Source: Bacillales bacterium UBA5578
GTDB lineage: Bacteria > Bacillota_I > Bacilli_A > RF39 > UBA660
Direction: 5' to 3'
Length of the DNA stretch: 64,000 nucleotides
NCBI GenBank assembly: GCA_002425325.1
Contig: DIMA01000018.1
Location: 8,259 to 72,258, forward strand
Below, one piece after another: positions 16,695-36,746 of this stretch (positions are counted from its first letter, which is position 1; each line of letters begins with the position of its first letter). Both the position numbers and the translations under genes were made by a program. The notes under the pieces were generated by a model that was not told the DNA's origin, did no database searches, and saw nothing but the letters and a program-made list of their open reading frames with translations.

Positions 16695-16877
16695 ATATAA
16701 TTTTCACATTTCAATATTTTGAAAAAAGGTATGGAATAAACATAAAAAGTATGTTATACTATTAATAGTATTTATGATAGGTAATAATAGATGTGTTGTT
16801 TTTATGGATTGGACACATCTTTTATACCGAGATAGTGCTGGTAATAGTTTATGTATATTTAGGTAGGAGGTGTCTGA

Positions 16878-17294: not shown

Positions 17295-17318
17295 GTTTAT
17301 TAGAGAGGGGAAATATTA

Positions 17319-18188: not shown

Positions 18189-18210
18189 TAATTATAGAAA
18201 AAGGGGATAG

Positions 18211-19536
18211 ATGATGGATAATATATTTGATCAAATGGACTTTGGTCCATTACAACAATATTTAGATAATGATGATGTTACAGATATTTCATATAGTAAT
18301 GGTGGACAAGTTTGGTTAAAAACATTATCACACGGAATATTTAGAATTGAAAATCCAGCTATAAACAATGCGTTTATGGAAAGACTGGCATTTCAATGTT
18401 CGAATGTTGTAGGGCATAGCTTTAATGCAGCCCATCCTTTTCTAGATAGTGAAGACGCTGAGTTACGTATGAATTTTATACATGAATCAATTGCAAAAAA
18501 TGGTATTGCATGTGTTATTCGTAAAACTCCAGCTAAAATAAGATTAGAAAAAGATAAAATTATAGCAGATAAATATATTACAGAAGATATTCATGAATTA
18601 TTAATTCATTGTGTTCATGGACATTGTAATATAATTGTATGTGGAGAAACAGGTTCAGGTAAAACAGAGTTTGTTAAATATTTAGCTTCACATACTAAAG
18701 AAAATGAAAAAATAATTACTATCGAAGATACTCTAGAACTTCACTTGGATAGAATTTATCCACATAGAGATATAGTTGCAATGAAAACTAATAATGTTGC
18801 TTCATATTCAGATGTTTTAGTTTCTTGTATGAGACAAAATCCAAAATGGATATTACTTTCCGAAGTTCGTAGTGCTGAAGCAGTTACTGCAACACGTAAC
18901 TCAATATCATCAGGACATTATATTTTATCAACAATACATGCTGATAAAGCTTCTTCTATTCCTAACCGTATGTATGGTCTTATGGAAACAAGTCAAGATG
19001 TTGATCAATTTTTAAAAACTTTTTATAGGTACATTCAAATTGGTGTATATATTAGAGGTTACCAAGATAAGAAAACTCAAAGATTTGTTCGTGAAATAGC
19101 AGAAGTTTGTGAATTTTATGTTACAGAAGAAAATGAAGCAAAATATAATGTAATTTATAAGAAAACCCCTGATGGAAAAGTTGTTAAGAAAGAACCAACT
19201 CAATATCTATTAGATTATCTTGAAAGTCAAGGTGTTATATTACCATCTGGTTTAATTAAAGAGGAAACTATAGATACAGGTGAAGTTGCATTTGGTGTTG
19301 ATACAATTTCTTCATCAGGTGGTATGAGTATTGAAGATTTTAATAATGGTAGTGATATGAATAACGGAGTCGAAATCCCTAAGGATATTAATGAAGATTC
19401 CGTAAATAATCAAGTTGATACACAACAAGTTGTTCAAACTGAAAATAATAGTGTATCTTCAGGGCAGGAAGTTGTACAAACAGTTCAACCAGTACAACAA
19501 CCATCAGTTAATCCAACTGAACAAAATATTGGTTAA
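18211..19536 (+). CDS. tadA: TadA/CpaF-family secretion ATPase (T2SSE/VirB11 superfamily).
   Basis: Walker A 'CGETGSGKTEF'. 'ITIEDTLEL' corresponds to the Asp box. 'ILLSEVR' is the Walker B/His-box region. T2SSF-like genes lie directly downstream. Confidence 0.8.
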   Translation: MMDNIFDQMDFGPLQQYLDNDDVTDISYSNGGQVWLKTLSHGIFRIENPAINNAFMERLAFQCSNVVGHSFNAAHPFLDSEDAELRMNFIHESIAKNGIACVIRKTPAKIRLEKDKIIADKYITEDIHELLIHCVHGHCNIIVCGETGSGKTEFVKYLASHTKENEKIITIEDTLELHLDRIYPHRDIVAMKTNNVASYSDVLVSCMRQNPKWILLSEVRSAEAVTATRNSISSGHYILSTIHADKASSIPNRMYGLMETSQDVDQFLKTFYRYIQIGVYIRGYQDKKTQRFVREIAEVCEFYVTEENEAKYNVIYKKTPDGKVVKKEPTQYLLDYLESQGVILPSGLIKEETIDTGEVAFGVDTISSSGGMSIEDFNNGSDMNNGVEIPKDINEDSVNNQVDTQQVVQTENNSVSSGQEVVQTVQPVQQPSVNPTEQNIG

Positions 19537-19556
19537 ATTAAATAGGAGGTGGATTT

Positions 19557-20462
19557 ATGTTAGGTATTTTAGCGTTTATATTAATAGGTGCAATTATTAT
19601 ATTTGTTATCTTATATAGAAATGCTAGTGGACAAAATCTATCAAGATATGTTGCGGAAAATACATCATTTATTTATGACAAATTTGCTCCATATACTTAT
19701 AGTTCTATAAGAGATAAAATTAAAGATTTAGGACAAGACTACACACCATATCAATATATGGTACAAGCTGTTGGTTTTGCAATAGGTGGAGCTATTATTT
19801 CATATTTATACTTTTATAATTTAATAATTTCTATTATTTATGGATTATGCGCAGTAGCAGTTACTCCATATTTAAATTATCTACGTTGTAAGAGATTATA
19901 TAGTGAATTTATTTTTGAACAAATTCAAGTATATACATCAAATACAATTATGGAATTTGCTACAACACAATCGTTTGTAAAATCACTTGAAGGTGTATAT
20001 AATTCAGGCGTGTTAGAAGATCCAGTAAAAACTGATGTTAAAGTAATGATAGATATGGCTTATGAAAACGGTACAATTGACCAATCATTAAGTTTCATGA
20101 GTACTAAATATGACTTCTATATGGTTAAGAATATGCATCAATTATTCTTACAAATTACAAATGAAGGTGCAAGAGATACAGCAGAATCTCTTGAAAATAT
20201 GTCTCAAGATATAGATACACTTGTTGAAAATGTATATAGAGATAGATTAGATAGAGCTCAATTCCATAAGAAATTTTTACAATTTGGAATTATATTATAT
20301 TTTATGTGTATGTTATTACAATTTATGTTAGGTAAAGATAAATATTTTGGTTTATTAGAATTATGGTATGTACAACTTATAATTCATGCTATATTAATTG
20401 TAAACTCTTACTTCTTGTTAAGTGGAGAAAAATATTATAATGAGAATGTAGGTGCTGAATAA
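19557..20462 (+). CDS. tadB: TadB-like (T2SSF family) inner-membrane pilus platform protein.
   Basis: ~300 aa with N- and C-terminal TM clusters. Adjacent to tadA. TAATG overlap with the next gene. Confidence 0.55.
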   Translation: MLGILAFILIGAIIIFVILYRNASGQNLSRYVAENTSFIYDKFAPYTYSSIRDKIKDLGQDYTPYQYMVQAVGFAIGGAIISYLYFYNLIISIIYGLCAVAVTPYLNYLRCKRLYSEFIFEQIQVYTSNTIMEFATTQSFVKSLEGVYNSGVLEDPVKTDVKVMIDMAYENGTIDQSLSFMSTKYDFYMVKNMHQLFLQITNEGARDTAESLENMSQDIDTLVENVYRDRLDRAQFHKKFLQFGIILYFMCMLLQFMLGKDKYFGLLELWYVQLIIHAILIVNSYFLLSGEKYYNENVGAE

Positions 20463-21247
20463 TGTGGTTTATTGTAATAGGTATTATATTAATTTTTATA
20501 TTAAATTATAATAAAGTAGTAGATACTCGTAAGTTTGTTACCGAATCTGGTGGTATTTTAAGTTATTTAATGGAAAATGATTATGAATTTTTATTAAATG
20601 TAAGATATCCTGGTAGAAATATTAATGCATATACAAGATTTCAAAAAAGATTAAGAGATGGTATTTTAGGAATACTTATTGTAATGTTTATTTTTATAAA
20701 TCAAATGTCATTGTTATATTTTGTAATTGCTGTAGTTGCAGGGTTCTTTGTTTTTAAAAATGATTATAATAATCTAAAAAGATACTATAAAGCAAATTTA
20801 AATCACGTTAATTCAATGCTTCCATATTATCTAAAAAACTTAGAAATATTAGTACAACATTATACAGTACCAGTTGCTTTAAGCAGAAGTATTGATAGTG
20901 CGCCTGAAGTATTCAGACCTGGACTAAGAAGATTAGTAGCAAAAATAGATGGTGGAGATTCAAGTGTTCAACCTTATATAGATTTTGCAAATGAGTATCC
21001 AGTTCGTGATTCAATGCGTATGATGCGTTTATTATATCGTTTAGGACTTGGTAGTCAACAAAATAAACATGATCAAGTAATGATGTTTTCTAGAACTGTT
21101 TCTGCTTTACAAAATAAAGCACGTGAACAAAAATATCAAAATCGTCTAGAAACAATGGAAAATAAAACATTAGTTATGCTTATTACTGCAGTAGCAGGTA
21201 TGTTAGCATTATTATTTATATCAATGATGCAAATAATGAATTTTTAA
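20462..21247 (+). CDS. tadC: TadC-like (T2SSF family) inner-membrane pilus platform protein.
   Basis: ~260 aa, TM helices at both ends, translationally coupled to tadB. Confidence 0.55.
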   Translation: MWFIVIGIILIFILNYNKVVDTRKFVTESGGILSYLMENDYEFLLNVRYPGRNINAYTRFQKRLRDGILGILIVMFIFINQMSLLYFVIAVVAGFFVFKNDYNNLKRYYKANLNHVNSMLPYYLKNLEILVQHYTVPVALSRSIDSAPEVFRPGLRRLVAKIDGGDSSVQPYIDFANEYPVRDSMRMMRLLYRLGLGSQQNKHDQVMMFSRTVSALQNKAREQKYQNRLETMENKTLVMLITAVAGMLALLFISMMQIMNF

Positions 21248-21306
21248 AAAAGAAAATAGTTTATGTTTTCTTTTTTTTTATTAAATTTAAAAATTATATA
21301 AAAATC

Positions 21307-21335
21307 TTGTTTAATATATAAAATAATGATATAAT
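21307..21335 (+). promoter_or_regulatory. Internal promoter upstream of the pilin gene: TTGTTT, 17 nt, then an extended -10 TGATATAAT.
   Basis: 'cttgtttaatatataaaataatgatataat'. It is preceded by a weak terminator-like hairpin after tadC (21248-21285). Confidence 0.5.
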
Positions 21336-21365
21336 TATCATAGTGTAAAGATAGGTGGTGAGGTT

Positions 21366-21599
21366 ATGAAAGAAGCAGCTGGAGAAGCTAACTTAACTGT
21401 TGTTGCAATTATCTTAATAGCTGTTGTAGTTGCTGTTGCTACACCATTAGTTAATAGTTTAATGGAAAACTCTGCAAATAGATCTTGTTGTACTGATGCA
21501 GGTGGTGTATGGAAAAGCAGTAAATGTACAAAAGCTAGTGGAAGTAAGGATTATGATTCAAAGAGTTATAATTCTTGTGTTAGTGCTGCAACAAAATAA
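21366..21599 (+). CDS. flp: Flp-like small pilin (77 aa), the candidate major pilin of the Tad-like system, with a Cys-rich C-terminus.
   Basis: 'MKEAAG|EANLTVVAIILIAVVVAVATPLV' is a short charged leader ending in Gly followed by ~22 hydrophobic residues. C-terminal 'SCCTD...KCTK...SCVS'. Strong GGTGGTGAGG RBS and its own promoter. Confidence 0.55.
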   Translation: MKEAAGEANLTVVAIILIAVVVAVATPLVNSLMENSANRSCCTDAGGVWKSSKCTKASGSKDYDSKSYNSCVSAATK

Positions 21600-21622
21600 T
21601 TTAGGTAGGAGGATAATAGCTT

Positions 21623-22117
21623 ATGCGTGAAAGTATTGGAACAATCTCTTTATTAAATTTTATTTTTATATATATTTTTATAGTGATGGCGATAATTGCT
21701 GGAACTATAAGCTATTATCGTGCTTATCGTGTTAACAATGTTATTGTTAGAGCTATAGAAAAATATGAAGGTTACAATAAACTATCTGCTGAAGCAGCTG
21801 AAGAAGGACTAGTAACATTAGCATATGAAAGAATTAATATTGACTGTGCTAAAAACAGAAAACAATATGTTGATAAAACTCATTATATTACTGGTAAATT
21901 AGCTAATTCAGGTACTTATAAAACAGATGGTTATTGTGTATATAGATATGAAAATGATACTTCATTTAAAACTAAAAGTGGTAGTTTAGCTACAACTGAT
22001 AGATATGATACATATGAAGTTGTGACATATATGTCATTGAATATTCCATTTTTAAATAATGTATTAAAAATGAAAACAAGCGCAAAAACATTAAGAATTT
22101 ATCATTTTGCAGATTAA
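21623..22117 (+). CDS. TadE-like pseudopilin.
   Basis: 'MRESIG|TISLLNFIFIYIFIVMAIIAG' is a pilin-like leader plus hydrophobic helix. 164 aa. GGAGG RBS. Confidence 0.5.
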   Translation: MRESIGTISLLNFIFIYIFIVMAIIAGTISYYRAYRVNNVIVRAIEKYEGYNKLSAEAAEEGLVTLAYERINIDCAKNRKQYVDKTHYITGKLANSGTYKTDGYCVYRYENDTSFKTKSGSLATTDRYDTYEVVTYMSLNIPFLNNVLKMKTSAKTLRIYHFAD

Positions 22118-22131
22118 TAAGAGGTGACTAA

Positions 22132-22581
22132 ATGAAAGAATCTATTGGACAAACATTTGTAACAAATTTGATTTTATTATTTACAGGCATTGGTCTCCTT
22201 TTATTATTTTATAGTGTTAATTATTCTAGGGCTTATAAAGCTAAAAATAGAATAATATATATATTAGAAAAAAATGAGAGCTTTGATGCAGCTAAATATG
22301 AAATTGATAATAATTTAGAAAAAGCTTCATATATATCTGTAAATGATAATAATTTTGATTATTGCAAAAAATATGGTGATATGGATAAAAATATATATCC
22401 TAAAAATTATACTAATAAAAATGAAAAATTTTATAAATATTGTGTATTTGAATATGAGGCTTCATATGGTAAATATTACAAAGTTATTACATTTATGAAA
22501 TTTGAAATTCCGTTAATTCAAGGTATATTAGAATTTCCTGTAAGGGGAGAAACTAAAAATATGATGAATACAGTAGAATAA
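22132..22581 (+). CDS. TadE-like pseudopilin, a paralog of the ORF at 21623.
   Basis: 'MKESIG|QTFVTNLILLFTGIGLLLLFY'. Both share the motif 'S(Y)YRAY(R/K)..N.I'. 149 aa. Confidence 0.5.
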   Translation: MKESIGQTFVTNLILLFTGIGLLLLFYSVNYSRAYKAKNRIIYILEKNESFDAAKYEIDNNLEKASYISVNDNNFDYCKKYGDMDKNIYPKNYTNKNEKFYKYCVFEYEASYGKYYKVITFMKFEIPLIQGILEFPVRGETKNMMNTVE

Positions 22582-22592
22582 GAGGGTGCGAT

Positions 22593-23564
22593 ATGAACGT
22601 AATTGTTTCTAATAAATACCAAGTAATGCTTGAAAGTTTAGGTATTGATATTATTAAAAACATGAATGGTGAATTTGAAGTTGATGAAATTATTGTAACT
22701 TTCCAAAACTTCTTTTATCAAAGAATGATTTTAGATATTACAGCAATTAAAAATTATAAAGATTTAAAAAATTTACAAAGATTATCAATTTCATTAGATA
22801 TGGATAAGATTATTCTTTTACTAGATGATTCTCCTGAGAGTTCAGCTCCTGGATATTTATCAAAACTTATATCTATGGGAATTTATAATTTTACAAGAAA
22901 TATTGATGGTATTCAATATTTATATAATCATCCAAATTCTTATAGGGATGTAGCACAATATCATGTTATAGATGATGTTGTAGTTGTTCAACAACCAAGT
23001 AATAATACTTCAGCTCCTGCTGTAGTAGATACTTATAATTATGGACAACAATATAGTAAGATTATTGGTATTAAAAATGTTACTAAGAGTAGTGGTGCTA
23101 CTACATTAACTTATATGATGTATAATGCATTAGCTAAAAATTATAATGTAGCTGCAATTGAAGTTGATAAAACCGATTTTGCTTACTTACAAGATAATAC
23201 AATGATTTCTGCTATTAGTGGTAACGTTAGCCAAGAAGTTAGCAAATATACTACTTGTGATGTTATCTTAATTGATGTTAATAATAGTGTTCAAGCTGAG
23301 TCATTATGTAATGAAATTATTTATATAATTGAGCCTACAACTATTAAATTAAATAAATTAATGATGATTACACCACAAGCATTAAAAACAATAAAAGATA
23401 AAAAGGTCATATTAAATCAAAGCTTATTGAGTTCTAAAGATGTTTTGGATTTTGAATATGAATCTAAATTAAAGATTTTTTATAATATGCCTCCATTAGA
23501 CGAAAGAGAACAAAATAATGAAATCTTAAGAGATTTCCTAAGCAAATTAGGCTTTAATATATAG
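22593..23564 (+). CDS. TadZ/CpaE-like protein with a degenerate MinD/ParA-type ATPase fold (candidate pilus-localization factor).
   Basis: The C-terminal half carries 'IGIKNVTKSSGATTLTYMMYNALAKNYNVAAIEVD', a deviant Walker A lacking the GK[ST] lysine. Position after the pseudopilins, as in tad loci. Confidence 0.35.
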   Translation: MNVIVSNKYQVMLESLGIDIIKNMNGEFEVDEIIVTFQNFFYQRMILDITAIKNYKDLKNLQRLSISLDMDKIILLLDDSPESSAPGYLSKLISMGIYNFTRNIDGIQYLYNHPNSYRDVAQYHVIDDVVVVQQPSNNTSAPAVVDTYNYGQQYSKIIGIKNVTKSSGATTLTYMMYNALAKNYNVAAIEVDKTDFAYLQDNTMISAISGNVSQEVSKYTTCDVILIDVNNSVQAESLCNEIIYIIEPTTIKLNKLMMITPQALKTIKDKKVILNQSLLSSKDVLDFEYESKLKIFYNMPPLDEREQNNEILRDFLSKLGFNI

Positions 23565-23581
23565 TATTATGAGGTGATTTT

Positions 23582-24592
23582 ATGAAAAACAAATTAACAA
23601 AAACTATTGTAATGATAGTTTTTGTCGTGTTTATAAGTTTATTTTTAAATGTTAATAATGTAAGAGCATGGGAATCTGTACCAGATGATGGTTATATTCA
23701 TTATTATACCGATTCTGGAACTGTTTGTTGGTATGGAAATGGTAATAATCAAATACAAGTTGAAGTTAATAATTCTGGTATTGGTATATATATTTCATAT
23801 GGTCCATGGTCTAAAAAATTTATTGAAAACTGGGAACATGATAAAGGTTTACATGGCGCTGTAAAAGTAGGTTTTAGAGGTGTTAAATATTACGATGACA
23901 ACAATAAAAGTTGCCCTAGATATGTAGCAAAATGTCATTATTACTCTGAAGATCGTTATTATGTTGTAAATACTGAGGATCAATTAGAAAGCTTGGATGA
24001 TAAATGTTATGCAGAAGCTGTTTTAACGGGTTCATATTCTTTTTCAAGCAAAGAATTAGTTAGAACTTGGCAAGTTCCTGTTGAAGTGCCTGATGATGTT
24101 ATTATAGTAGAGGAAGAACCAACTTATGAATGTGCTATTGTAAATGGTGAATATTATGATGCATCAGGAAATAAGGTTTCTCAATCTGTGTATGAAGAAT
24201 CTTGTGCTACACCTGAAATTAATGAAGGAATTGTAAATCCATTAGAAGATAATAGTGAGTCATATAGTTGTGGAGATGGATATTTAACAGATATTCCTGG
24301 ATCATTACTTAGAGTAACTAGTTTATTATATACATTATTTCAAGTTGTAATTCCTGTAATTCTTGTTATAATATGTTCAATAGATTTAATTAAGGCAATG
24401 GCAGGTCAAAAAGAAGATGAAATCAAAAAAGGACAACATTTATTAATTAAAAGATTAATTCAAGCAATTATAATATTCTTTGTATTTGCTATTGTTAAAT
24501 TTTTAGTTAGTGTTGTAAGTCAAAATAGTAGTAGTGTAATAGACTGTGTAAATTGCTTTATTGATGGTAAAGATAGCGATAGTTGTGTATAG
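23582..24592 (+). CDS. Secreted protein (336 aa) with a Cys-containing N-terminal domain and a C-terminal VirB2/pilin-like two-helix module. Member 1 of the tandem paralog family.
   Basis: Signal peptide 'MKNKLTKTIVMIVFVVFISLFLNVNNVRA'. C-terminal '...CGDGYL...VVIPVILVIICSIDLIKAMAGQKEDEIKKGQHLLIKRLIQAIIIFFVFAIVKF...NCVNCFIDGKDSDSC'. Confidence 0.55.
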   Translation: MKNKLTKTIVMIVFVVFISLFLNVNNVRAWESVPDDGYIHYYTDSGTVCWYGNGNNQIQVEVNNSGIGIYISYGPWSKKFIENWEHDKGLHGAVKVGFRGVKYYDDNNKSCPRYVAKCHYYSEDRYYVVNTEDQLESLDDKCYAEAVLTGSYSFSSKELVRTWQVPVEVPDDVIIVEEEPTYECAIVNGEYYDASGNKVSQSVYEESCATPEINEGIVNPLEDNSESYSCGDGYLTDIPGSLLRVTSLLYTLFQVVIPVILVIICSIDLIKAMAGQKEDEIKKGQHLLIKRLIQAIIIFFVFAIVKFLVSVVSQNSSSVIDCVNCFIDGKDSDSCV

Positions 24593-24601
24593 GGGGATAA
24601 T

Positions 24602-25081
24602 ATGAAAAAATATTTTAGATATATAATTTGCACATTAATGGTTATGTTTTTTAAAATAAATGTATTCGCAGCTAATGCTCCGTTTATGCAAACGGAAAAA
24701 GTATCATGTGGAGATGGATTAATAAACAATCTACCTAAAATTGTTATTACATTATGTAATACATTATATAATGTAGTTATGGTTTTAATTCCTGTAATTC
24801 TTGTATTTCTAGGAATTATTGACTTAATGCGAGGAATGATGAGTCAAAAAGAAGATGAAATCAAAAAAGGTAGAGATGGATTTATAAAAAGAACTATAAT
24901 GGGTTTAGTTATCTTCTTAGTTGTTATTGTGGTAAAAATAATTGTTAGTTTCCTAGATAGTGGAACTAATTCAAATAAAATAATAAATTGTGTTGATTGT
25001 ATTATTAGTGGTGAGTGTGATACTCAATCTAGTTCACAAACATCAAATAATAATAATAATAATCAACAAATGTTAGCATAG
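24602..25081 (+). CDS. Small secreted VirB2/pilin-like protein (paralog 2).
   Basis: Signal peptide, 'SCGDGL', two hydrophobic helices flanking 'SQKEDEIKKGRDGFIKR', C-terminal 'NCVDCIISGECD'. Confidence 0.55.
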   Translation: MKKYFRYIICTLMVMFFKINVFAANAPFMQTEKVSCGDGLINNLPKIVITLCNTLYNVVMVLIPVILVFLGIIDLMRGMMSQKEDEIKKGRDGFIKRTIMGLVIFLVVIVVKIIVSFLDSGTNSNKIINCVDCIISGECDTQSSSQTSNNNNNNQQMLA

Positions 25082-25089
25082 GAGGATAT

Positions 25090-25506
25090 ATGAAAAAGAA
25101 AAAATTATTATTTATATTTATGATATTTGTCTGTCTTTTTACATTTATCCCTAATGTTAATGCTGAAAATTTTACTTGTTCAGCATTTGGAAGTGATGTT
25201 TATATTGATAAACATCTTGCACAAATAACAAAATATGTTATACTAATCTTACAAATTGTAGCGCCTATTATTTTAGTTATAATGGGAATGATTGATTTAA
25301 TGAAAGGTATTACTTCACAAAAAGAAGATGAAATCAAAAAAGGACAACAAATATTTATCAAACGTTTAATTGCTGGTTTAATACTATTCTTTGTATTTGC
25401 AATTACAAAGTTTGTAATTAGTGTTGCTGCTAGTTCTTCTGATAGTAATATTATGAATTGTGCATCATGCTTTATAAGCGGACCAGATGATGTAGATTGT
25501 AGATAG
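25090..25506 (+). CDS. Small secreted VirB2/pilin-like protein (paralog 3).
   Basis: Signal peptide 'MKKKKLLFIFMIFVCLFTFIPNVNA', 'TSQKEDEIKKGQQIFIKRLIAG', C-terminal 'NCASCFISGPDDVDC'. Confidence 0.55.
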   Translation: MKKKKLLFIFMIFVCLFTFIPNVNAENFTCSAFGSDVYIDKHLAQITKYVILILQIVAPIILVIMGMIDLMKGITSQKEDEIKKGQQIFIKRLIAGLILFFVFAITKFVISVAASSSDSNIMNCASCFISGPDDVDCR

Positions 25507-25510
25507 GAGT

Positions 25511-25978
25511 ATGAATATGAAAAAGAATATAATTAAATTTACAATGTTTACTTTAATATGTGTATTTGCTTTAAACTCAAACGTTTTTGCAGCAGATATA
25601 ACATGTAATGAATTAGGTAGTGCAAAAATAGATGCTTCGATAGTTGATTTAATACACACAATTATCTTAGTATTACAAATAGCTGTACCAATTTTATTAG
25701 TTGTTTTTGGAATGTTAGACTTAATGAAAGCTGTTATAGCTCAAAAAGAAGATGAAATTAAAAAAGGACAACAAACATTTATCAAACGTTTAGTTGCAGC
25801 AATTATTTTCTTCTTTGTTATAGCTATTGTTAAATTTGCAATTAGTGCTATTTCAAAAGATAATGGTGATATTATTAGTTGTATGAATTGCTTTATAGAA
25901 GGTTCAAAATCAACTTCATGTCAAGTTGCTACAACTACTAATTCTAATGCAAATAAAAATACTAAACCAACAGTTTAA
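25511..25978 (+). CDS. Small secreted VirB2/pilin-like protein (paralog 4).
   Basis: Signal peptide, 'AQKEDEIKKGQQTFIKRLVAA', C-terminal 'SCMNCFIEGSKSTSC'. Confidence 0.55.
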   Translation: MNMKKNIIKFTMFTLICVFALNSNVFAADITCNELGSAKIDASIVDLIHTIILVLQIAVPILLVVFGMLDLMKAVIAQKEDEIKKGQQTFIKRLVAAIIFFFVIAIVKFAISAISKDNGDIISCMNCFIEGSKSTSCQVATTTNSNANKNTKPTV

Positions 25979-25991
25979 TTGAGGTGAAAAT

Positions 25992-27095
25992 ATGGTTGAT
26001 GCTTTAAAAAGTATGGATAAAAAATACTTAATGATAATTGGTGGAATTTTTGGAATACTTTTATTAGTTATAATTGTTTTAGCATCTATGAAAGGATGTT
26101 CAGGACCTAGTAAAAACTATCAAAGTGCTGAAAGTAAAATGGTTAAAGCAGCTAAAGAGTATTTTAAAGAAAAAGGATTACCTGAAAATGGTAAGAGCAA
26201 AGAAGTTAGTGTTACAGAATTATCTGGATCAGGTAAAATGAAAAAATTAGATAAAATATTATCTGATAAAACATGTGATGGTAAAGTAACTATATATAAT
26301 AATAATGATAATTATTTAGTCGTTCCTCATTTAGAATGTAGTGAATATAAAACTAAACATTTAAAAGATAAAATTATTGAAGATAGTGAAGTTATTAACC
26401 CAGAAGATCCATATAAATCAGGACTTTATAAAATGGATGATAAATATGTTTTTAGAGGAAAAAATCCAAATAACTATGTATCATTTGGTGGATTAATCTG
26501 GCGTATAATTGATATTGATAAAGATGGTACTATTAGAGTTATAAAAGTTGAACCAGAAAAGAATAAATCTGTATGGGACAATAAATATAATGTTGAAGTA
26601 AATAAAAATTATGGTATAAATGACTATAAAAATAGTGTATTATTAGAAAGATTAAATTCTGAATATAGTAAATTTAAAAAAGAAAGTAAAAAACATTTAT
26701 CTTCATTCAATGTTTGTATAGGAAAAAGAAATCCAACTGATATTGGAATAGATTATAATATTGATTGTTCTGAAATATTAGAAAACCAATATATTAGTGT
26801 AATAAATGTTTCAGATTATAGTAGACCTTCATTAGATGAACATTGTGATTCAATTGTTGCGGGTGCATGTACAAATTATAATTATATGTTATATGTAACT
26901 GGTAATACTTGGACAGTAAGCACTAAGAAAGATTCTACTTATAATGCTATTATGATTACTGGTGGAGTAGGTGCTTCAGATACTGCAAAAACGTCTAGTT
27001 CTTACAACTGGGTTGTTGCATTTAGAGGTGATGAACTATATACTCAAGGTGATGGTTCTGCTAATAATCCATATTTAATTAGTAATGAAAAATAA
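25992..27095 (+). CDS. Bitopic membrane protein (N-terminal TM, large extracytoplasmic domain) inserted in the pilin-paralog array. Possible VirB8/TcpC-like scaffold.
   Basis: 'YLMIIGGIFGILLLVIIVLA' is a TM helix, followed by 340 hydrophilic residues with several Cys. No catalytic motif recognised. Confidence 0.3.
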   Translation: MVDALKSMDKKYLMIIGGIFGILLLVIIVLASMKGCSGPSKNYQSAESKMVKAAKEYFKEKGLPENGKSKEVSVTELSGSGKMKKLDKILSDKTCDGKVTIYNNNDNYLVVPHLECSEYKTKHLKDKIIEDSEVINPEDPYKSGLYKMDDKYVFRGKNPNNYVSFGGLIWRIIDIDKDGTIRVIKVEPEKNKSVWDNKYNVEVNKNYGINDYKNSVLLERLNSEYSKFKKESKKHLSSFNVCIGKRNPTDIGIDYNIDCSEILENQYISVINVSDYSRPSLDEHCDSIVAGACTNYNYMLYVTGNTWTVSTKKDSTYNAIMITGGVGASDTAKTSSSYNWVVAFRGDELYTQGDGSANNPYLISNEK

Positions 27096-27158
27096 TATGA
27101 TATATTGACACAAAAAAACTAATAGAGTATAATTTTTAGTATAGAGGAGGAAAAAATT

Positions 27159-27551
27159 ATGATTAATTTTTTAGCTTTACAATCTAATGGATCATATACT
27201 TGTGGAGATAGTGGATTAAGTTTCCAAGGTTCACTTCCAAGTACAATTTCCATGATTATATTATTAATTAAAATTGTAGTTCCAATTTTATTAATAGTAT
27301 TTGGTATGTTAGATTTAGCAAAAGCTGTTATGGCTCAAAAAGAAGATGAAATTAAAAAAGGACAACAAACATTTATTAAACGTTTAATTGCAGCTGTAGT
27401 AGTATTCTTTATTATTACTATTGTTCAAATTGTTATTAAATATGTTTCTGGAGGAGATTCTTCAGTAACAAGTTGTTTCAATTGTTTCGTAAATGGTAGT
27501 GCCGGAGATAACGGTTGCAAAATGGAAACAGGAAATGGTCCAACAATTTAA
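27159..27551 (+). CDS. Small VirB2/pilin-like protein (paralog 5) that lacks an obvious signal peptide.
   Basis: GAGGAGG RBS. 'TCGDSGL', 'AQKEDEIKKGQQTFIKRLIAA', C-terminal 'SCFNCFVNGSAGDNGC'. Confidence 0.5.
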   Translation: MINFLALQSNGSYTCGDSGLSFQGSLPSTISMIILLIKIVVPILLIVFGMLDLAKAVMAQKEDEIKKGQQTFIKRLIAAVVVFFIITIVQIVIKYVSGGDSSVTSCFNCFVNGSAGDNGCKMETGNGPTI

Positions 27552-27599
27552 AAAACTATTTTAATAATAGTTTTTTTTTATTATTTTTTTTGATATAAT
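27552..27599 (+). terminator. Terminator hairpin immediately followed by an extended -10 promoter (TGATATAAT). This is copy 1 of a duplicated cassette.
   Basis: aaaaactatt-ttaa-taatagttttttttt ... tgatataat. The same unit is found at 28833-28871. Confidence 0.55.
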
Positions 27600-27624
27600 A
27601 ATTTTAACGAATAGAGGTAATAAA

Positions 27625-28818
27625 ATGAAAAAAATTATTTATATGATAATAACTTTTATTTCATTATTTGTTTTTTCAAATGATGTTAAAGCAGTTACTA
27701 TGACAGAGCCTATACGAATCTGTGAATATGGTGTAAGAGATGGTGATGATGGTAGTACTTGGGATAGTAGAATAAAAATTGAGGTTTATTCAAGAACTTT
27801 TTTAAGAATTAATGGAGCAGGTTCTTATATCGTTAAAAGTATTTTTTTTGAAGATGGAACAATGAATGATGGGGTTGCATTTTATAATACTGACGGTAGT
27901 GAACAATATGTTGCTTATGGTGAAGATACTTCCGCTAGTAAATCACAATATTATTATTATATATCATTATGGCCATTTGAAACTACATATCAGTCTTTAG
28001 AAGGTAAATGCCCTCCAACTGTAAAATATGAAGTTAAACATGAAGGTGGAACTAGAACAAAAACTTATTTTCTTTTTTATAATGATGATTTAGATAAACC
28101 TGCTACAGCTGATTCTATATTTTTAGCAAATTGTCCTTCTGGTTCTTCTTGCTTAAGTATTACATCTTTAGTAAGAGGTGATGATACTATTGTAGAATCT
28201 GTTGGATTTGATAGTTCTATAGGACGTTTAATTGAAAAGGGTTCAAAAGATAAACCTTTATCGGAAATAGCAGATGATTATGGTTGCCTAACTTATTCAG
28301 CTGGATTAAATCAAATTAGAAATTCTATGAATAAAGTTTCTCCTGCTTCATGTAATAATAATGCATATTTTAATAAAGCATATCAAGATTTAAATGAAAT
28401 GTGTAATAGATATAAAAGTTCATCTTATTATTCAGATGAAAATAGTGATGAATTACAAACTAAGGCATGTAGCAAAGCTTGTACTTTATTTAGAGATAAT
28501 GTAGCAAAAATTTGTGGATATGATGTTAATCAACCAAGTTGTGGATCGTTAGGATCTAGAACTATAGACTGGATATTTAAAATAATAAGAATAGTAAGAT
28601 ATGCAGTTCCAGCATTATTAGTTATTTTAAGTATATTAGATTATATAAAAGCAATAGCATCAGATAGTGATGATGAAGTTAAGAAAACAAATGGAAAAGT
28701 AGTTAAAAGAATGATAGCTGCCGCTTTAGTATTCCTAGTACCATTCTTATTAGAATTTATATTGAATTTATTTGAAATTCCAGGGCTTAATTCTAACAAC
28801 CCATTCTGTGCTAATTAA
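27625..28818 (+). CDS. Secreted protein (397 aa) with a Cys-rich N-terminal domain and a C-terminal VirB2/pilin-like module (paralog 6, divergent).
   Basis: Signal peptide 'MKKIIYMIITFISLFVFSNDVKA'. C-terminal 'VRYAVPALLVILSILDYIKAIASDSDDEVKKTNGKVVKRMIAAALVFLVPFLLEF...NNPFC'. Confidence 0.5.
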   Translation: MKKIIYMIITFISLFVFSNDVKAVTMTEPIRICEYGVRDGDDGSTWDSRIKIEVYSRTFLRINGAGSYIVKSIFFEDGTMNDGVAFYNTDGSEQYVAYGEDTSASKSQYYYYISLWPFETTYQSLEGKCPPTVKYEVKHEGGTRTKTYFLFYNDDLDKPATADSIFLANCPSGSSCLSITSLVRGDDTIVESVGFDSSIGRLIEKGSKDKPLSEIADDYGCLTYSAGLNQIRNSMNKVSPASCNNNAYFNKAYQDLNEMCNRYKSSSYYSDENSDELQTKACSKACTLFRDNVAKICGYDVNQPSCGSLGSRTIDWIFKIIRIVRYAVPALLVILSILDYIKAIASDSDDEVKKTNGKVVKRMIAAALVFLVPFLLEFILNLFEIPGLNSNNPFCAN

Positions 28819-28832
28819 ATGAGTATATAAGC

Positions 28833-28871
28833 AAAAAAACTATTTTAATAATAGTTTTTTTTTGATATAAT
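28833..28871 (+). terminator. Terminator hairpin plus extended -10 promoter (TGATATAAT). Copy 2 of the cassette, upstream of the VirB6-like gene.
   Basis: aaaaaaactattttaataatagtttttttttgatataat is near-identical to 27552-27599. Confidence 0.55.
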
Positions 28872-28930
28872 ATTGATAGTAGTGAAATATTAAATAAATT
28901 AATAAATTTAAGAAGGGTCGATGTTTATAT

Positions 28931-31057
28931 ATGGATTTTATAATTAAAACTTTTAGAATTTTATTCTTTATGTTAGATGAAGTAGTATATGGTTTAATAG
29001 ATGATTTTTATGCTTTACTATTACAACTATGTAGAACTTCAATTTTTACACAAGATGTTATAAGTGAATTTGCAAAAAGAGTTTATGCACTTGTTGGTAT
29101 ATTTATGTTGTTTAAAGTTACACTATCAATAATTACATATATATTAAATCCAGATGATTTTAGTGATAAAGAAAAAGGTTTTACATCAATTATTAAACAT
29201 GTAATTTTATCTTTGGTTTTAGTAGTAATAACTCCATATATTTTTAGTGAAGCGTACGATTTACAAACTATAATATTAGAAGATAATACCATTATGAATG
29301 TAGTGTTTGGTACACCAGCTGAAGCTCATATGCCTAATACTAGTTATGTAGAGTCGGCTGGGAACAAGATACAATTTACGATTATGTATGCTTTTGCGCA
29401 ACCAAATATAGATGATTTCTATACGGATTCTAATACAAATTTGGCATCGTGTGCAACTACATATAAGAAAGATTCGAATGGTAACTACGAATTTAGAGCG
29501 TTACCAAAATATGATATAGAAGTTGCATCTGCTTGTGAAGCAGGAAAATCATGCTTTATATACGAATTAAATCCTGATTGTTTTGGATCATATAATGCAG
29601 ATAATGATACATATGAAAATGGACCTTTATATAATGCTTTTAACGAATACGAAAGTGAAGACTCAATTGCTGGTTCAACAGTTTATCAAAACTATGCTCA
29701 AGGTGTTGCTCAACAAAGTTTTAATATGTTCTTTAGAAAAGATGTAATTCTTGCAACTGTAGATACTGATGGAACTAAGCGATATATTATAGATTATAAA
29801 TTTGGTATTAGTACTGCTGTTGGTATAGGTGTATTATATTTATTATTATTATTCTGTATTGATATAGCAGTTCGTTCTGTTAAATTAGGTTTCTTACAAA
29901 TGATTGCTCCGATTCCAATTATTTCATATTGTGATCCAAAATCTAAAAAAGATGGAATGTTTAGTAAATGGTTAAAAATGTGTACATCGACATATTTAGA
30001 ATTATTCTTTAGATTATTTGCTTTATATTTTGGTATTTATGTTATTTCATTAATAGGAACATTTAAAGATGTAATCACTAATCAAAAAGTAGATGGTTTC
30101 TTTGTATCTGTATTTATGATAATAGGAATTTTGATTTTTGTTAAGCAATTACCAAAAATTCTTGAAGATAGTCTTGGAATTAAAGGTGCTGGTAACTTCC
30201 AATTAAATGCATTAAAAAAATTAGAAAACGATATGCTTGGTGGTAAATATGCTGCAGCAGGTATTAGAAGAGGTCGAAATGCTATAGGTGGTGCTGCAGT
30301 TGCAGGTATAACAGGTGCTGGATTTGCCGGAATGGGTAAGGCATTTACAGGCGGTTTGAAAGGCGATAAATTTAGTAAACAATTAATGGATGCTAGAGCT
30401 GCAAAGCATAATAGAAAAGCTAATCTTTTAAAAATGAAAGATGATGGCGTTAATGATTTTGATATTTTAGGAGAAAAATGGTATCAAGCTAGACATGGTG
30501 GTCTTACTAGAAGTGAACATGCAACAAATGTTTCGAATGCTATGAAATCAATTCAAGATGATTATGCTAATTATGAAAAAACAGCTGCTGGTGTAGATGC
30601 GATTGCTAAGGACTTTGATAAACGTAAAAAAGCTGCAGAAGCAGCAGGTGATTATGCTGAAGCTAAAAGATGGTCTACTGCATTTGATGCACGTGTAAAA
30701 GAAATTGCTAAAAATCATGGTAAAGTTGTAGGAAAAACTTCGATAGCTGATTTAAGTACAACAGTTGATGCAGATGGAAATATAATAGCTGGAACTGATT
30801 ATTATGGAACAGCTGTTGGTGGTACAGTTGAAGTTAATGCTGCATTAAGAAATACACAAGATCATATGGATTCTGTTGCTGCTGCAATGAATAGTCAAGG
30901 TTCTGATGTTGCAGGATATCAAGTTATTAATGCTAGCACAGCTTCAGATATTAAGGCTGTTAAGAATCAAGCACAAGCATCACAACAATCTATTGATACT
31001 AATGCAGCTAATAAGAAAAATGCTGACGTTGCTAAGTATGTTAATCAAAAGAAATAA
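28931..31057 (+). CDS. VirB6-like polytopic membrane protein (TcpH/Orf15/ConG analog) with a C-terminal Ala/Gly/Lys-rich soluble domain.
   Basis: 708 aa. Multiple TM helices in residues 1-420. Position immediately upstream of VirB3/VirB4 as in Tn916/ICEBs1. Hydrophilic C-terminal tail. Confidence 0.5.
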   Translation: MDFIIKTFRILFFMLDEVVYGLIDDFYALLLQLCRTSIFTQDVISEFAKRVYALVGIFMLFKVTLSIITYILNPDDFSDKEKGFTSIIKHVILSLVLVVITPYIFSEAYDLQTIILEDNTIMNVVFGTPAEAHMPNTSYVESAGNKIQFTIMYAFAQPNIDDFYTDSNTNLASCATTYKKDSNGNYEFRALPKYDIEVASACEAGKSCFIYELNPDCFGSYNADNDTYENGPLYNAFNEYESEDSIAGSTVYQNYAQGVAQQSFNMFFRKDVILATVDTDGTKRYIIDYKFGISTAVGIGVLYLLLLFCIDIAVRSVKLGFLQMIAPIPIISYCDPKSKKDGMFSKWLKMCTSTYLELFFRLFALYFGIYVISLIGTFKDVITNQKVDGFFVSVFMIIGILIFVKQLPKILEDSLGIKGAGNFQLNALKKLENDMLGGKYAAAGIRRGRNAIGGAAVAGITGAGFAGMGKAFTGGLKGDKFSKQLMDARAAKHNRKANLLKMKDDGVNDFDILGEKWYQARHGGLTRSEHATNVSNAMKSIQDDYANYEKTAAGVDAIAKDFDKRKKAAEAAGDYAEAKRWSTAFDARVKEIAKNHGKVVGKTSIADLSTTVDADGNIIAGTDYYGTAVGGTVEVNAALRNTQDHMDSVAAAMNSQGSDVAGYQVINASTASDIKAVKNQAQASQQSIDTNAANKKNADVAKYVNQKK

Positions 31058-31077
31058 AAAAGAGGATGTGAATAAAA

Positions 31078-31395
31078 ATGGGGAATTATTTAATACCAGC
31101 CAATTCAAAAAAGTCTATGTTAATATTTGGGCTGTTTAATCAATTAGATTTAATTATATTTGGTGTAGGAATTGGTATATCGTTATTACTATTAATGATA
31201 TTACCTGTAGATGAACTTGTTTGGGCGATACTTGCTATTGCCCCAGGTTGTATCTGCGCATTATTGGTGTTACCAATTCCTAATTATCATAATGTTAGAA
31301 CATTTATTAAATCAGCATATACATTTTATACAACTAGACAACAATTTGTTTGGAAAGGATGGTGCTATAAAGATTATGGCAACTCAAAAAAGTAA
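31078..31395 (+). CDS. VirB3-like small two-TM protein (ConD/PrgI analog).
   Basis: 105 aa. Two hydrophobic helices ('LIIFGVGIGISLLLLMILPV', 'WAILAIAPGCICALLVLPIP'). Directly precedes and overlaps the VirB4 start. Confidence 0.45.
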   Translation: MGNYLIPANSKKSMLIFGLFNQLDLIIFGVGIGISLLLLMILPVDELVWAILAIAPGCICALLVLPIPNYHNVRTFIKSAYTFYTTRQQFVWKGWCYKDYGNSKK

Positions 31396-31924
31396 ATATA
31401 CTAATGATGATATTCCTGTAAAGAGTATAACTAATGGTGTTATTCATCTAGAAGGTAGAGATAATATGAAAGTAACAGGTGTTAAGATAATGCCTAGAAA
31501 TATATTTATCTTAGATCCAGGAATGCAAAATGCAATAATAACTAATTTAAAAACAGTTTATAATGTTATAGATTATGAATTTTGGATAATTGTAGCTGAT
31601 AGACCAGTTGATATAAATGTATATCTATCTGAGTTAGAATTACTTTATAATAAAACATCAGATCCAGCTAGAAGAAAAATAATTACTGAAGATTTAAATA
31701 AAGCTAATATGTTTACAAGTAATAATGTAGTAGATACTGAATATTTCTTATTATTTAAAGAAAGAAATGATGATGTTATTGGAAAGAGAATTAGAAATTT
31801 AATTAATAATTTTGCTAATGCAGGTTTAACAGCTTTCCAAACATCTAATGATGATTTAAGAATGATTTTAGATAATTTCTTAAATGGTGGACAAACAACA
31901 GAATTTGGAACGGTGTTATCATGA
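31376..31924 (+). CDS. VirB4/TrsE-like ATPase, N-terminal fragment (183 aa) encoded as a separate ORF.
   Basis: 'DDIPVKSITNGVIHLEGRDNMKVTGVKIMPRNIFILDPGMQNAIITNLKTVYN' matches the conserved N-terminus of Gram-positive VirB4 (Orf16/TcpF type). It ends with a TGA that overlaps the next ATG (ATGA). Confidence 0.55.
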   Translation: MATQKSKYTNDDIPVKSITNGVIHLEGRDNMKVTGVKIMPRNIFILDPGMQNAIITNLKTVYNVIDYEFWIIVADRPVDINVYLSELELLYNKTSDPARRKIITEDLNKANMFTSNNVVDTEYFLLFKERNDDVIGKRIRNLINNFANAGLTAFQTSNDDLRMILDNFLNGGQTTEFGTVLS

Positions 31925-33708
31925 TAGATATTAAAAGTCAAATAGCTCCTAAGGGACTAGAATTTAAACCTGCTGAATTCGTAATAAGTGATAAACATGC
32001 TACTATATTAACTGTAATTAGTTATCCTAAATATATTTATCCAGGATATTTATCTTCATTAACATCAATGTCTGGAATTAAATTAGTTATTAAACATATA
32101 CCATTACCTTTTAGTACTGTTCAAAAAATGTTAAATAAAGAAATAGCAGATTTAAAGGTAAGATATCAAGAAGAAAATGATAGAACAATTCAAGAAAGAA
32201 TTAAACAAGATTATGCTTCATTGGAAGAATTTGTATCTGAATTAGCAGCTACACAAGCTAAAATCTATGATTTTCAAATGCATATAATGATAACAGCTAA
32301 TTCAGCTGATGAATTAATTGTTAAAAAATTACAAATTAAAAATTATTTAGAAGCAATGGAGATGAAAGCAATTCCATTAAGATTTGAACAAGATAAAGTT
32401 TTAAAATCTATGCTTCCTATTTATGAAAAACAAGATATAGAGGATAGAATTGGAACACCAATTCCAGCACCTACAATGGCTGCTATGTATCCATTTATAT
32501 TTGATAGTATAAAAGATCCAGGATTATCTACATTATTAGGTATAGATTTTTCTGGAGGAGTTATATTATTTAATCAATTTTTATATCAAATTAAGAAAGA
32601 ACATAATAGAAATAATGCTAATATGATTATATTAGGAACATCTGGTAGTGGTAAGTCTACTGCAGCTAAATTATTATTAAGAAATCATATTAGAAATAAT
32701 CATCAATTAATTGTTATTGACCCTGAAGGTGAATTAGAAGATATGTGCCTACAATATGGCGGTGACTTTATAAGCCTTGGTAAAGGTGGACAATTTGGTA
32801 TGATTAATCCTTTTGAAGTTGTTATGGATGTAGATGAAGAAGAAATTAAACAAGGTTTAGGATATACTACATTTACTAGAACAATTCAATCAATTAAAGC
32901 TTTCTTAAAATATTATGATCCTTCTGTTGAAGAGGATGTTCTAAATATGTTTAGTGAAGTTGCTCAAGAAACATATAGAAGATTTAATATTAATTTTGAT
33001 ACCAATTTTATGAACTTGACAAGTGCAGATTATCCTACATTTAAGGATGTATATGCTACTGTTAAAGGTAAATTATTATCAATGCCAGAAAGAACTCAAG
33101 AAAGAGATATTTTAGAAAGATTAGAATTAAAAATTAGACCATTAGTAAAAGAATTAAAATATTATTTTGATGGTCATACTACTATTTCAGCTAAAAGTGA
33201 TTTTATAGTATTTAATATAAGAGAGTTAATGAATTCTGATGAAAATATCAGAAATGCTTTATTCTTCAATGTGTTAAAATATGCTTGGAGTTTAACTTTA
33301 GATGTTAACAAAAATACTATATTAGAAGTAGATGAAGCTCACGTATTATTAAGTAATCAAAACGTTTTAGGTGCTGATTTCTTAGCTCAAATTCAAAGAC
33401 GTGCAAGAAAATATAATACAGGTACAATTATTATTACTCAACAACCAACAGATTTCTGTGACCCAGCTGTTATTACTCAAGGTAAGGCAATATTTGATAA
33501 TACATCTTACTATTTAGTAATGGGATTAAAGAAACAAGCTGCAACAGATTTAGCTAGATTAATAGATTTAAATGAATCTGAGGTTGAAAGTATTAAAAAA
33601 TATGGTCAAGGGGAAGCTTTATTTATATGTGGTAGTAGAAGAATGAGAATTAACGTTGTGGTTACAGAAGAAGAATTAGATTCATTTGGCCGTGGCGGAG
33701 GTTTATAA
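31921..33708 (+). CDS. VirB4/TrsE-like conjugative ATPase, C-terminal fragment (595 aa) carrying the P-loop NTPase domain.
   Basis: Walker A 'ILGTSGSGKST'. Walker B 'NTILEVDEAHVLL'. 'TIIITQQPTDF' is the VirB4 motif region. Confidence 0.8.
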   Translation: MIDIKSQIAPKGLEFKPAEFVISDKHATILTVISYPKYIYPGYLSSLTSMSGIKLVIKHIPLPFSTVQKMLNKEIADLKVRYQEENDRTIQERIKQDYASLEEFVSELAATQAKIYDFQMHIMITANSADELIVKKLQIKNYLEAMEMKAIPLRFEQDKVLKSMLPIYEKQDIEDRIGTPIPAPTMAAMYPFIFDSIKDPGLSTLLGIDFSGGVILFNQFLYQIKKEHNRNNANMIILGTSGSGKSTAAKLLLRNHIRNNHQLIVIDPEGELEDMCLQYGGDFISLGKGGQFGMINPFEVVMDVDEEEIKQGLGYTTFTRTIQSIKAFLKYYDPSVEEDVLNMFSEVAQETYRRFNINFDTNFMNLTSADYPTFKDVYATVKGKLLSMPERTQERDILERLELKIRPLVKELKYYFDGHTTISAKSDFIVFNIRELMNSDENIRNALFFNVLKYAWSLTLDVNKNTILEVDEAHVLLSNQNVLGADFLAQIQRRARKYNTGTIIITQQPTDFCDPAVITQGKAIFDNTSYYLVMGLKKQAATDLARLIDLNESEVESIKKYGQGEALFICGSRRMRINVVVTEEELDSFGRGGGL

Positions 33709-36733: not shown

Positions 36734-36746
36734 TAGAGGTGTTAGT

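Follow-up and report, generated by a model that had tools for sequence, protein, structure and literature searches.

Six tandem genes for candidate VirB2-like subunits beside type IV secretion genes in an uncultured lineage of gut Bacilli

A stretch of 64,000 nucleotides from Bacillales bacterium UBA5578 (assembly GCA_002425325.1, contig DIMA01000018.1, positions 8,259 to 72,258 of the forward strand), named "the window" in the current work and always meant at its full length, carries six related genes on its + strand. These genes, numbered copies 1 to 6 along that strand and collectively called the "window pilins", are listed with the starts of their open reading frames (ORFs) in Table 1. It is considered probable that they encode VirB2-like subunits, differentiated from one another, of a type IV secretion system (T4SS) of the Gram-positive type which is chromosomal, has no relaxase and belongs to an uncultured, low-GC lineage of gut Bacilli. 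The array looks like a fixed set of specialised parts and not like a variable repertoire; filament formation, and the allocation of major and minor roles to the subunits, are predicted from the sequences.

A common module in six genes of fixed order

The six ORFs begin precisely where a preliminary description of this DNA had placed them, and its view that they are paralogs built on one module was borne out by an alignment in which all copies align over a common C-terminal part. This module opens with an invariant Cys and continues with a first hydrophobic helix, in which one Pro is invariant, a loop of the sequence (A/S)QKEDEIKKGQQxFIKR and a second hydrophobic helix, followed in five of the six copies by a tail of the form xCxxCFxxG(5-6)C. 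The residues retained throughout are the Cys ahead of helix 1, then P, L, D, DE, KK, KR, F and one C-terminal Cys. The Cys-rich tail, formerly assigned to all members, is present in copies 1 to 5 and absent from copy 6, and the loop, formerly given as QKEDEIKKGQQ.FIKRLI for all, does belong to the shared module, with the exceptions of copy 6, in which it has diverged to SDSDDEVKKTNGKVVKR (containing SDSDDEVKK), and of copy 2 (QKEDEIKKGRD). 'CGDG', once proposed as a family motif, turned out to be restricted to copies 1 and 2, the Cys alone being invariant. The one member said to be without a signal peptide is copy 5, and the same applies to its orthologues in every locus checked. A BLAST comparison of the ectodomains of copies 1 and 6 yielded an alignment confined to the C-terminal module and the leader.

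Considering that the loop contains five K or R against three D or E, and that the termini are acidic or neutral, the positive-inside rule suggests that each protein would form a helical hairpin across the membrane, its loop lying in the cytoplasm and its two ends outside.

The family is widespread and unannotated. At least 325 homologues of copy 3 were found in a 90%-identity collection, none of which bears a functional name and almost none a Pfam domain, and a profile search of 1.84 billion cluster representatives returned 9,588 matches at E≤0.001 (5,319 at E≤1e-10). Searches of the literature on RF39 and type IV secretion, and on the Pfam family PF18895, turned up no account of it; the TANB77 'pilin' cluster consists of single-helix type IV-like pilins which differ from the array module (PMC11680825). 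A scan of one genome per species gave 195 confirmed sites, of which 75 loci were kept for the synteny and orthology counts reported here. Almost all of these loci come from metagenome-assembled genomes (MAGs) of animal and human guts which are labelled uncultured Bacilli, 'Tenericutes' or Erysipelotrichaceae, the few with other labels being probably the result of binning errors. The labels suggest that the hosts may be RF39-like reduced-genome Bacilli; the window itself also encodes SpoIID, DivIC, YfhO and PrsW.

A locus carries between two and six pilin copies, always in the same order, and the full six-copy layout (large, three small, the intervening gene, small, large) recurs in loci L001, L003, L004 and L032. 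The intervening gene, for which searches of Pfam and NCBIfam gave no match, was recovered by tblastn in 51 of the 75 loci, invariably in the gap between copies 4 and 5. When 99 columns of the module were clustered, the sequences grouped by their position in the array across genomes and not by genome. Orthologues are 59-76% identical (copy 5 being highest at 76%, copy 6 at 71%), as opposed to 28-58% for paralogs within the window; copy 1 forms a positional orthogroup with 61% identity over 5 genomes. Since the copies cluster by position, they represent old, differentiated orthologues.

In some family members (P0201, P0206, P0240, P0256, P0264 and P0303, of 350-409 aa) the module is N-terminal and a long extension makes up the C-terminal part, which is the layout opposite to that of copies 1 and 6.

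The 33-nt core and the question of gene conversion

The preliminary description had drawn attention to a 33-nt core in the loop-coding DNA, thought to be almost identical in five copies and more conserved than the encoded amino acids require, and had read the array as a variable-pilin repertoire in which segments are exchanged by gene conversion around this core so as to produce antigenic or adhesin variation. The core is indeed present with at most one mismatch in four copies (at 24407, 25318, 25742 and 27336), dinucleotide shuffles yielding no match, and the flanking codons have diverged as had been reported (45-64% nucleotide identity over the module). In copy 2 the core is identical at only 28 of 33 positions, and in copy 6 (28663) at 19; the coordinates first given were 0-4 nt off, the core of copy 2 lying at 24845 and not at 24841.

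The window has a GC content of ~26% and a codon usage to match (CAA for 99% of Q, AAA for 86% of K, GAA for 91% of E and GAT for 94% of D), and random back-translations of QKEDEIKKGQQ with this usage share on average 30.7 of 33 nt, 26% of them sharing at least 32. The near identity of the core is therefore explained by conserved amino acids together with extreme codon bias, which predict about what is seen, and no conservation beyond amino-acid constraint has to be assumed. Aligned identical residues use the same codon somewhat more often than expected inside the core (89 of 99 pairs, 75.9 expected), and outside it as often as expected (224 of 362 pairs, 219 expected). In a null model in which the protein sequences were fixed, the codons redrawn and the longest identical run recorded across all 15 pairs, the mean was 28 nt and the 95th percentile 36 nt. 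Only the pair of copies 4 and 5 rises above this null, with an identical run of 44 nt which exceeds 98.7% of the simulations (P ~0.013); the runs of the other pairs (32, 28, 26 and ≤18 nt) remain within it.

For a variable repertoire there speak, then, the core common to four copies, this single marginal run and the slight excess of shared codons in the core, to which may be added that the multiple VirB2 paralogs of Bartonella and Anaplasma have been read likewise, according to the passage of PMC12102498 in which that work is cited. Against it stand the codon bias, the otherwise unexceptional runs and codon sharing, the grouping by position, the greater divergence of paralogs than of orthologues, and the six intact ORFs whose order is kept in several species. 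The core moreover extends beyond the window: the same 33-mer (≤2 mismatches) occurs in 37 of the 75 loci of other species, and the loop motif, nearly invariant family-wide, is kept in hundreds of homologues from other species. At the level of sequence comparison, gene conversion or concerted evolution among the copies, and with it antigenic variation, is largely refuted as an account of the array, and such a repertoire is regarded as highly improbable.

Two peculiarities of codon choice were observed in passing. In all six copies the invariant Phe which opens helix 2 (27405-27407 in copy 5, for instance) has the minor codon TTC (15% usage), mostly with TTT after it, and the rare codon CGT for the loop Arg is common to copies 3 to 5. 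Avoidance of T-runs or shared ancestry may underlie this.

Relationship of the module to VirB2-type pilins

The assignment to VirB2/TrbC-type pilins made in the preliminary description receives moderate support. The layout of a T4SS pilin (small size, a leader, and two hydrophobic helices with a short polar loop between them) is found in the alignment and in the AlphaFold2 model of copy 3, and the corresponding context is found in the adjoining genes for VirB6, VirB3 and VirB4, whose synteny is conserved. The model of copy 3 has a pLDDT of 84.5; it begins with a leader helix and a small hairpin, continues with helices 41-75 and 79-114 (pLDDT >90 across both) and closes with a short C-terminal helix; that of copy 6 has a pLDDT of 76.7. 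Weak matches to PF18895 (T4SS_pilin) were obtained for four of the six window pilins (E 0.0011-0.29), the best for copy 5 (E 0.0011), where the match spans profile positions 2-71 of 71. No Pfam family is matched as often among the relatives: E≤0.05 is reached by 69 of 120 members of the small type (best 6.9e-6), and E≤0.01 by 39 of 53 orthologues of copy 6 (best 1.6e-7), for which no other Pfam family recurs; five copy-6 orthologues bear a precomputed PF18895 annotation. Small and copy-6 types are homologous to each other according to hhalign (probability 99.2%, E 6.5e-20). On the basis of these sub-threshold profile matches and the strong context it is plausible that the module is of the VirB2-like T4SS pilin kind.

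Several observations weigh against this interpretation. T4SSs of Gram-positive bacteria are generally pilus-less, and the proteins could be parts of a membrane-embedded channel instead of fibre subunits. All window copies score below the gathering threshold of PF18895 (≤19.4 against 26.6 bits), and other hydrophobic families score similarly weakly, namely DUF621 (55 of 120 members) and MamI (89 of 120, best 2.5e-5). A sequence-profile search of the PDB with the family alignment gave a single chance match (E=1), and the VirB6 and VirB3 assignments are themselves made from sub-threshold matches plus position. A Foldseek search of the PDB with the copy 3 model reached no better than E=4, a result that speaks neither for nor against the pilin reading, the fold being too simple for a fold search to discriminate.

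The weak MamI and DUF621 matches could be taken to mean that the module belongs to an unrelated family of small membrane proteins (holin-, immunity-protein- or MamI-like) which merely adjoins secretion genes. These matches are compositional, cover one helix plus the loop, and lie far below their cutoffs (~19 against 80 bits for the NCBIfam MamI model), for which reason they were rejected. Furthermore, nearly all loci have the array at one and the same place, between the Tad and VirB6 genes, holins are a poor fit for proteins with signal peptides and with Cys-rich tails on the outside, and PF18895 remains the sole recurrent Pfam family for the copy-6 orthologues. An unrelated origin is thus judged improbable.

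For the ectodomain of copy 6 a VirB5-like or adhesin fold was considered, and a Foldseek search with the AlphaFold2 model of this copy gave no convincing match (best E 0.08, TM <0.2).

Copy 5 as a separate transcription unit

Copy 5 is distinguished from the other copies by its own signals for transcription. The promoter directly upstream of it (Table 1) is the sole site matching the consensus at 12/12 positions within 16500-31500, and a promoter at equal distance from the orthologous gene matches at 12/12 in 30 of 48 loci and at 11/12 in a further 16 (at least 11/12 in 46 of 48), compared with a background level (mode 8/12) for the other pilin genes. In a second classification, 67 of 76 loci had a promoter matching at no fewer than 11/12 positions ahead of a pilin gene with a short N-terminus. 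Directly 3' of the gene, a hairpin followed by a T-run is found in 45 of 47 loci, as against 62 of 215 cases for other pilin genes, the sequences of the stem varying among species. Copy 5 orthologues have a short N-terminus and, in the loci checked, never a signal peptide, and this copy is the most conserved of the six. Its own conserved promoter and terminator, its strong ribosome-binding site, its missing signal peptide and its high conservation, a combination typical of such subunits, together point to copy 5 as the probable, abundant major subunit.

Between this terminator and copy 6 (27591-27624) an extended -10-like element (TTGATATAAT) was noticed, for which reason copy 6 and the VirB6-VirD4 genes downstream may have a promoter of their own.

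Genes surrounding the array and the possibility of conjugation

The array lies directly downstream of a Tad-like pilus operon and directly upstream of genes for VirB6-, VirB3-, VirB4-, hydrolase- and VirD4-like proteins, all of which are located on the + strand and separated by short gaps (Table 1). The gene order of the Tad-like operon is kept in 43-71 of the 75 loci, with CpaF being 72-88% identical across loci; its 323-aa protein is possibly TadZ-like. For the TrsD-like piece, the ATG at 31376 is the probable true start; its counterpart on the Bacillus thuringiensis plasmid pBMB67, a 227-aa protein, weakly matches TraC_F_IV.

Table 1 Positions in the window of the pilin array and of the features surrounding it
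Feature	Coordinates	Strand	Description
Tad-like pilus operon	16878-23564	+	DUF5411, CpaB-like SAF protein, CpaF-type (T2SSE) ATPase, two TadB/C-like membrane proteins, 77-aa pilin, two TadE-like pseudopilins, 323-aa protein; Pfam matches
Copy 1	23582-24592	+	336 aa; signal peptide, ~200-aa Cys-containing ectodomain, two-helix pilin-like module, Cys-rich tail
Copy 2	24602-25081	+	159 aa; small pilin-like, signal peptide, loop QKEDEIKKGRD; orthogroup in clustering
Copy 3	25090-25506	+	138 aa; small pilin-like, signal peptide
Copy 4	25511-25978	+	155 aa; small pilin-like, signal peptide; PF18895 match E 0.018
Intervening non-pilin gene	25992-27095	+	367 aa; one N-terminal transmembrane helix, large outside domain
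Sigma-70 consensus promoter	27105-27133	+	TTGACA-17-TATAAT, then AGGAGG ribosome-binding site; directly upstream of copy 5
Copy 5	27159-27551	+	130 aa; pilin-like, without signal peptide
Intrinsic-terminator-like element	27550-27590	+	AT-rich hairpin and T-run, directly 3' of copy 5; fold energy -9.3 kcal/mol
Copy 6	27625-28818	+	397 aa; signal peptide, ~290-aa ectodomain (beta-rich, then helical), divergent pilin-like module; adjoins VirB6-like gene on its upstream side
VirB6/TrbL-like protein	28931-31057	+	polytopic membrane protein, long C-terminal extension; PF04610 TrbL E 0.004, below cutoff; syntenic in 66/75 loci
VirB3-like protein (PrgI/TcpE-like)	31078-31395	+	small, two helices; weak TcpE (E 0.013) and PrgI (E 0.074); position of the annotated PrgI gene in pBMB67
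N-terminal VirB4-like piece (TrsD-like)	31211-31924	+	separate gene; 31% identity to 227-aa protein upstream of pBMB67 VirB4; syntenic in 61/75 loci
VirB4-like ATPase	31921-33708	+	AAA_10 8e-11, TraG P-loop 1.6e-10; 77-93% identity across loci; 29% to VirB4 of Bacillus thuringiensis plasmids
Cell-wall hydrolase	33728-36052	+	M23 peptidase (PF01551 6e-29) and CHAP (PF05257 3e-8); predicted functional VirB1 equivalent
Three genes	36062-38800	+	lipoprotein; SpoIID + Peptidase_C39_2 protein; 228-aa protein; partly syntenic
VirD4-type coupling protein	38812-41010	+	PF02534 8e-57; 64-67% identity in loci whose flank extends that far

A rival view is that the locus is an ordinary conjugation machine, related to Bacillus-type conjugative plasmids and either integrated or domesticated, in which the six proteins would be membrane-resident parts of the channel or of mating-pair formation and DNA would be transferred, for example that of mobilisable elements with a relaxase of their own. 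In its favour, a coupling protein is encoded within the cluster. Six window proteins (VirD4, VirB4, the TrsD-like piece, CpaB, CpaF and TadC) have homologues of 23-32% identity in conjugative pBMB67, which also combines a T4SS with a Tad-like module and, in the equivalent place upstream of TrbL, encodes a protein of 126 aa that has two transmembrane helices besides a signal peptide; in addition, a Mob_Pre relaxase and a serine recombinase are encoded ~7 kb upstream in the window. From the set of an MPF_FATA-type conjugative system, VirB4 and VirD4 are present in the cluster and a relaxase is absent from it, Mob_Pre being encoded nearby on another element. Domain searches of the ORFs within 11300-41010 revealed no relaxase or integrase, and the sole relaxase of the window (3019-4362) belongs to a separate small element beyond tRNA, YfhO and ScpA/B genes. 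The flanks are of the housekeeping type, with ScpA/ScpB upstream (as in four other loci) and RmuC, RNase R and SmpB downstream. The order of the cluster is conserved across many species-level genomes and VirB4 is 77-93% identical, which suggests vertical inheritance; a tblastn search of 72,556 plasmids with copy 5 gave no match; and a dedicated strong promoter with a terminator suits an abundant fibre protein better than a part of a channel. A conjugation machine of this kind is given a minor, though not negligible, probability.

The element which carries the Mob_Pre gene is a mobilisable-element-like block on the - strand (1745-7436), comprising a 410-aa protein, the Mob_Pre (MOB_V-type) relaxase and a large serine recombinase (4851-6749). 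It adjoins tRNA-Leu(CAA) at 7350-7436, with YfhO and ScpA/B lying between it and the T4SS cluster. The block could be a client of the chromosomal T4SS and its VirD4.

Proposed arrangement of the subunits

Returning to a set of VirB2-like subunits, the following arrangement is proposed. Each protein would insert in the membrane as the ends-out hairpin described above, with the QKEDEIKKGQQxFIKR loop cytoplasmic, and in a VirB2-type fibre this loop would come to face the lumen and the assembly machine, which would account for its constraint across all copies and species while the outward ends diverge. Copy 5 would be the abundant major subunit and copies 2 to 4 minor subunits, and copies 1 and 6 would anchor large outside domains by means of the same module, probably as components of the tip or the base or as adhesins. 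A machine composed of VirB6, VirB3 and VirB4 would extract the subunits from the membrane and build a short conduit or pilus spanning the wall, which may work with the adjacent Tad-like pilus in transfer that depends on contact with other cells. A link between the two termini could be formed by the four cysteines on the outside, one of them N-terminal and the others in CxxC...C, through putative disulfides or a metal site.

Comparison with known systems

According to reviews, Gram-positive T4SSs have neither VirB2 nor VirB5, Patescibacteria being the exception (PMC12857230, PMC12102498, PMC10633639). In Patescibacteria, between 2 and 11 divergent VirB2-like genes form an array close to virB4 with no relaxase, which sometimes includes a non-pilin gene and has a paralog identity of 25% on average and 54% at most (PMC12102498); in S. 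epibionticum the array comprises six pilins and is essential (PMC10633639, PMC12857230). The essential pilin array of the Patescibacteria T4SS is the closest analogue of the window array, which here occurs in a different phylum. Its system (for example that of Ca. Southlakia epibionticum, SEML1_0006-0019) resembles that of the window in its monoderm backbone of VirB3/PrgI, a TrsD-like piece plus VirB4, VirB6 and cell-wall hydrolases, in its chromosomal location and relaxase-free cluster, in its tandem divergent two-helix pilins (six here and six in S. epibionticum, some of the reported arrays being interrupted by a non-pilin gene), in its PF18895 matches (below the cutoff for the window proteins), and in a small, low-GC host genome which also encodes a type IV-like pilus. 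The window array, of six genes with one intervening, is likewise found ~3 kb upstream of virB4, and its paralogs are 28-58% identical. It differs in that its hosts are Bacilli MAGs, and what further sets this locus apart is the VirD4 coupling protein within the cluster, the physical fusion of the array to a Tad-like operon, the family-specific signature of the invariant loop QKEDEIKKGQQxFIKR and the outside cysteines (C...CxxC...C), and the two members with large ectodomains.

The nearest plasmid relatives are of the pBMB67 type (NC_009841, Bacillus thuringiensis, and related plasmids of the B. cereus group). They share with the window VirD4, TrbL, PrgI, the 227-aa VirB4 N-terminal piece, VirB4 and a Tad-like module, which in pBMB67 consists of an SAF protein, an AAA ATPase, a T2SS/T4P ATPase, membrane proteins and small pilins. 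In contrast to the window cluster, pBMB67 is a plasmid with a MobP3 relaxase and has the one 126-aa protein and no array; between its VirB6 and the VirB6-like protein of the window, no similarity was detectable by tblastn. The 126-aa 'hypothetical protein' of pBMB67 (locus L076, 17649-18029), encoded between the VirD4 and TrbL genes, has a long signal peptide, two transmembrane helices and a charged loop, and is a positional and topological analogue of VirB2; similarity to the window family or to PF18895 was undetectable by hhalign and Pfam searches.

VirB2-like pili also occur in the archaeal Ced and Ted systems, which are chromosomal, relaxase-less machines for DNA import, the pilin CedA1 being apparently unprocessed (PMC9905601). 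The VirB2, TrbC and TraA proteins of Gram-negative T4SSs, like the archaeal CedA1 and TedC, are small hydrophobic two-helix hairpins with a short polar loop, and homologues of VirB6 and VirB4 adjoin them; the processed TedC and VirB2 may be compared with copies 1-4 and 6, and the apparently unprocessed CedA1 with copy 5 (PMC9905601). The searches with the window pilins gave no significant sequence match to them and, for a fold that such searches do not resolve, no specific structural match. Solved conjugative pilins are without the Cys-rich tail and the conserved acidic-basic loop motif, and the window cluster has no VirB5-like gene.

Pilin-like two-helix modules are furthermore present in the T4SSs of wall-less relatives of Bacilli, namely the Mbov_0395 family (NF045849) and the MMCAP2_0566 family (NF045848) of integrative and conjugative elements (ICEs) of Mycoplasma. 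Copy-6 orthologues match both weakly (NF045848 in 14 of 53, best 1.1e-4; NF045849 in 4 of 53), with scores far below the cutoffs (15-19 against 40-90 bits), and the Mycoplasma proteins are encoded on mobile ICEs with DNA-processing genes of their own.

Implications

An unannotated family of gut Bacilli in a conserved Tad-plus-T4SS cluster would constitute a second exception to the pilin-less T4SSs of Gram-positive bacteria. A further-reaching interpretation, which is speculative and rather unlikely, is that a reduced-genome lineage of gut Bacilli has domesticated a conjugation-type T4SS that builds a true VirB2-type fibre from one major and five specialised pilins and is run together with the adjacent Tad pilus, as a core organelle for contact-dependent uptake from, or delivery to, neighbouring cells. 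If true, this would be unlike every other Gram-positive system described outside Patescibacteria, would imply a Patescibacteria-like, partner-dependent lifestyle for these gut bacteria, and would possibly place the origin of Patescibacterial pilin arrays in Bacillota. Experimental handles are provided by the invariant loop motif, by the subunit with its own conserved promoter and terminator and by the two subunits bearing ectodomains, through which monoderm T4SS pili, the source of Patescibacterial pilins and the interactions of reduced-genome gut Bacilli with other cells become testable questions.

Additional observations

Upstream of the Tad-like operon (11300-16668, + strand) there are three genes without a family match. 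Their products are a polytopic protein of 525 aa, a protein of 220 aa that has a signal peptide and is anchored at its C-terminus, and a secreted protein of 1019 aa rich in Cys. Since the 525-aa and 220-aa genes recur upstream of the cluster in ~25 loci, the conserved unit may start at 11300.

Elsewhere in the window, ribosomal protein L20 (56453-57007, + strand) carries a C-terminal extension which matches helix-extension-helix domains of the Rho_N/SAP/HeH type (PF07498, E 6e-9).

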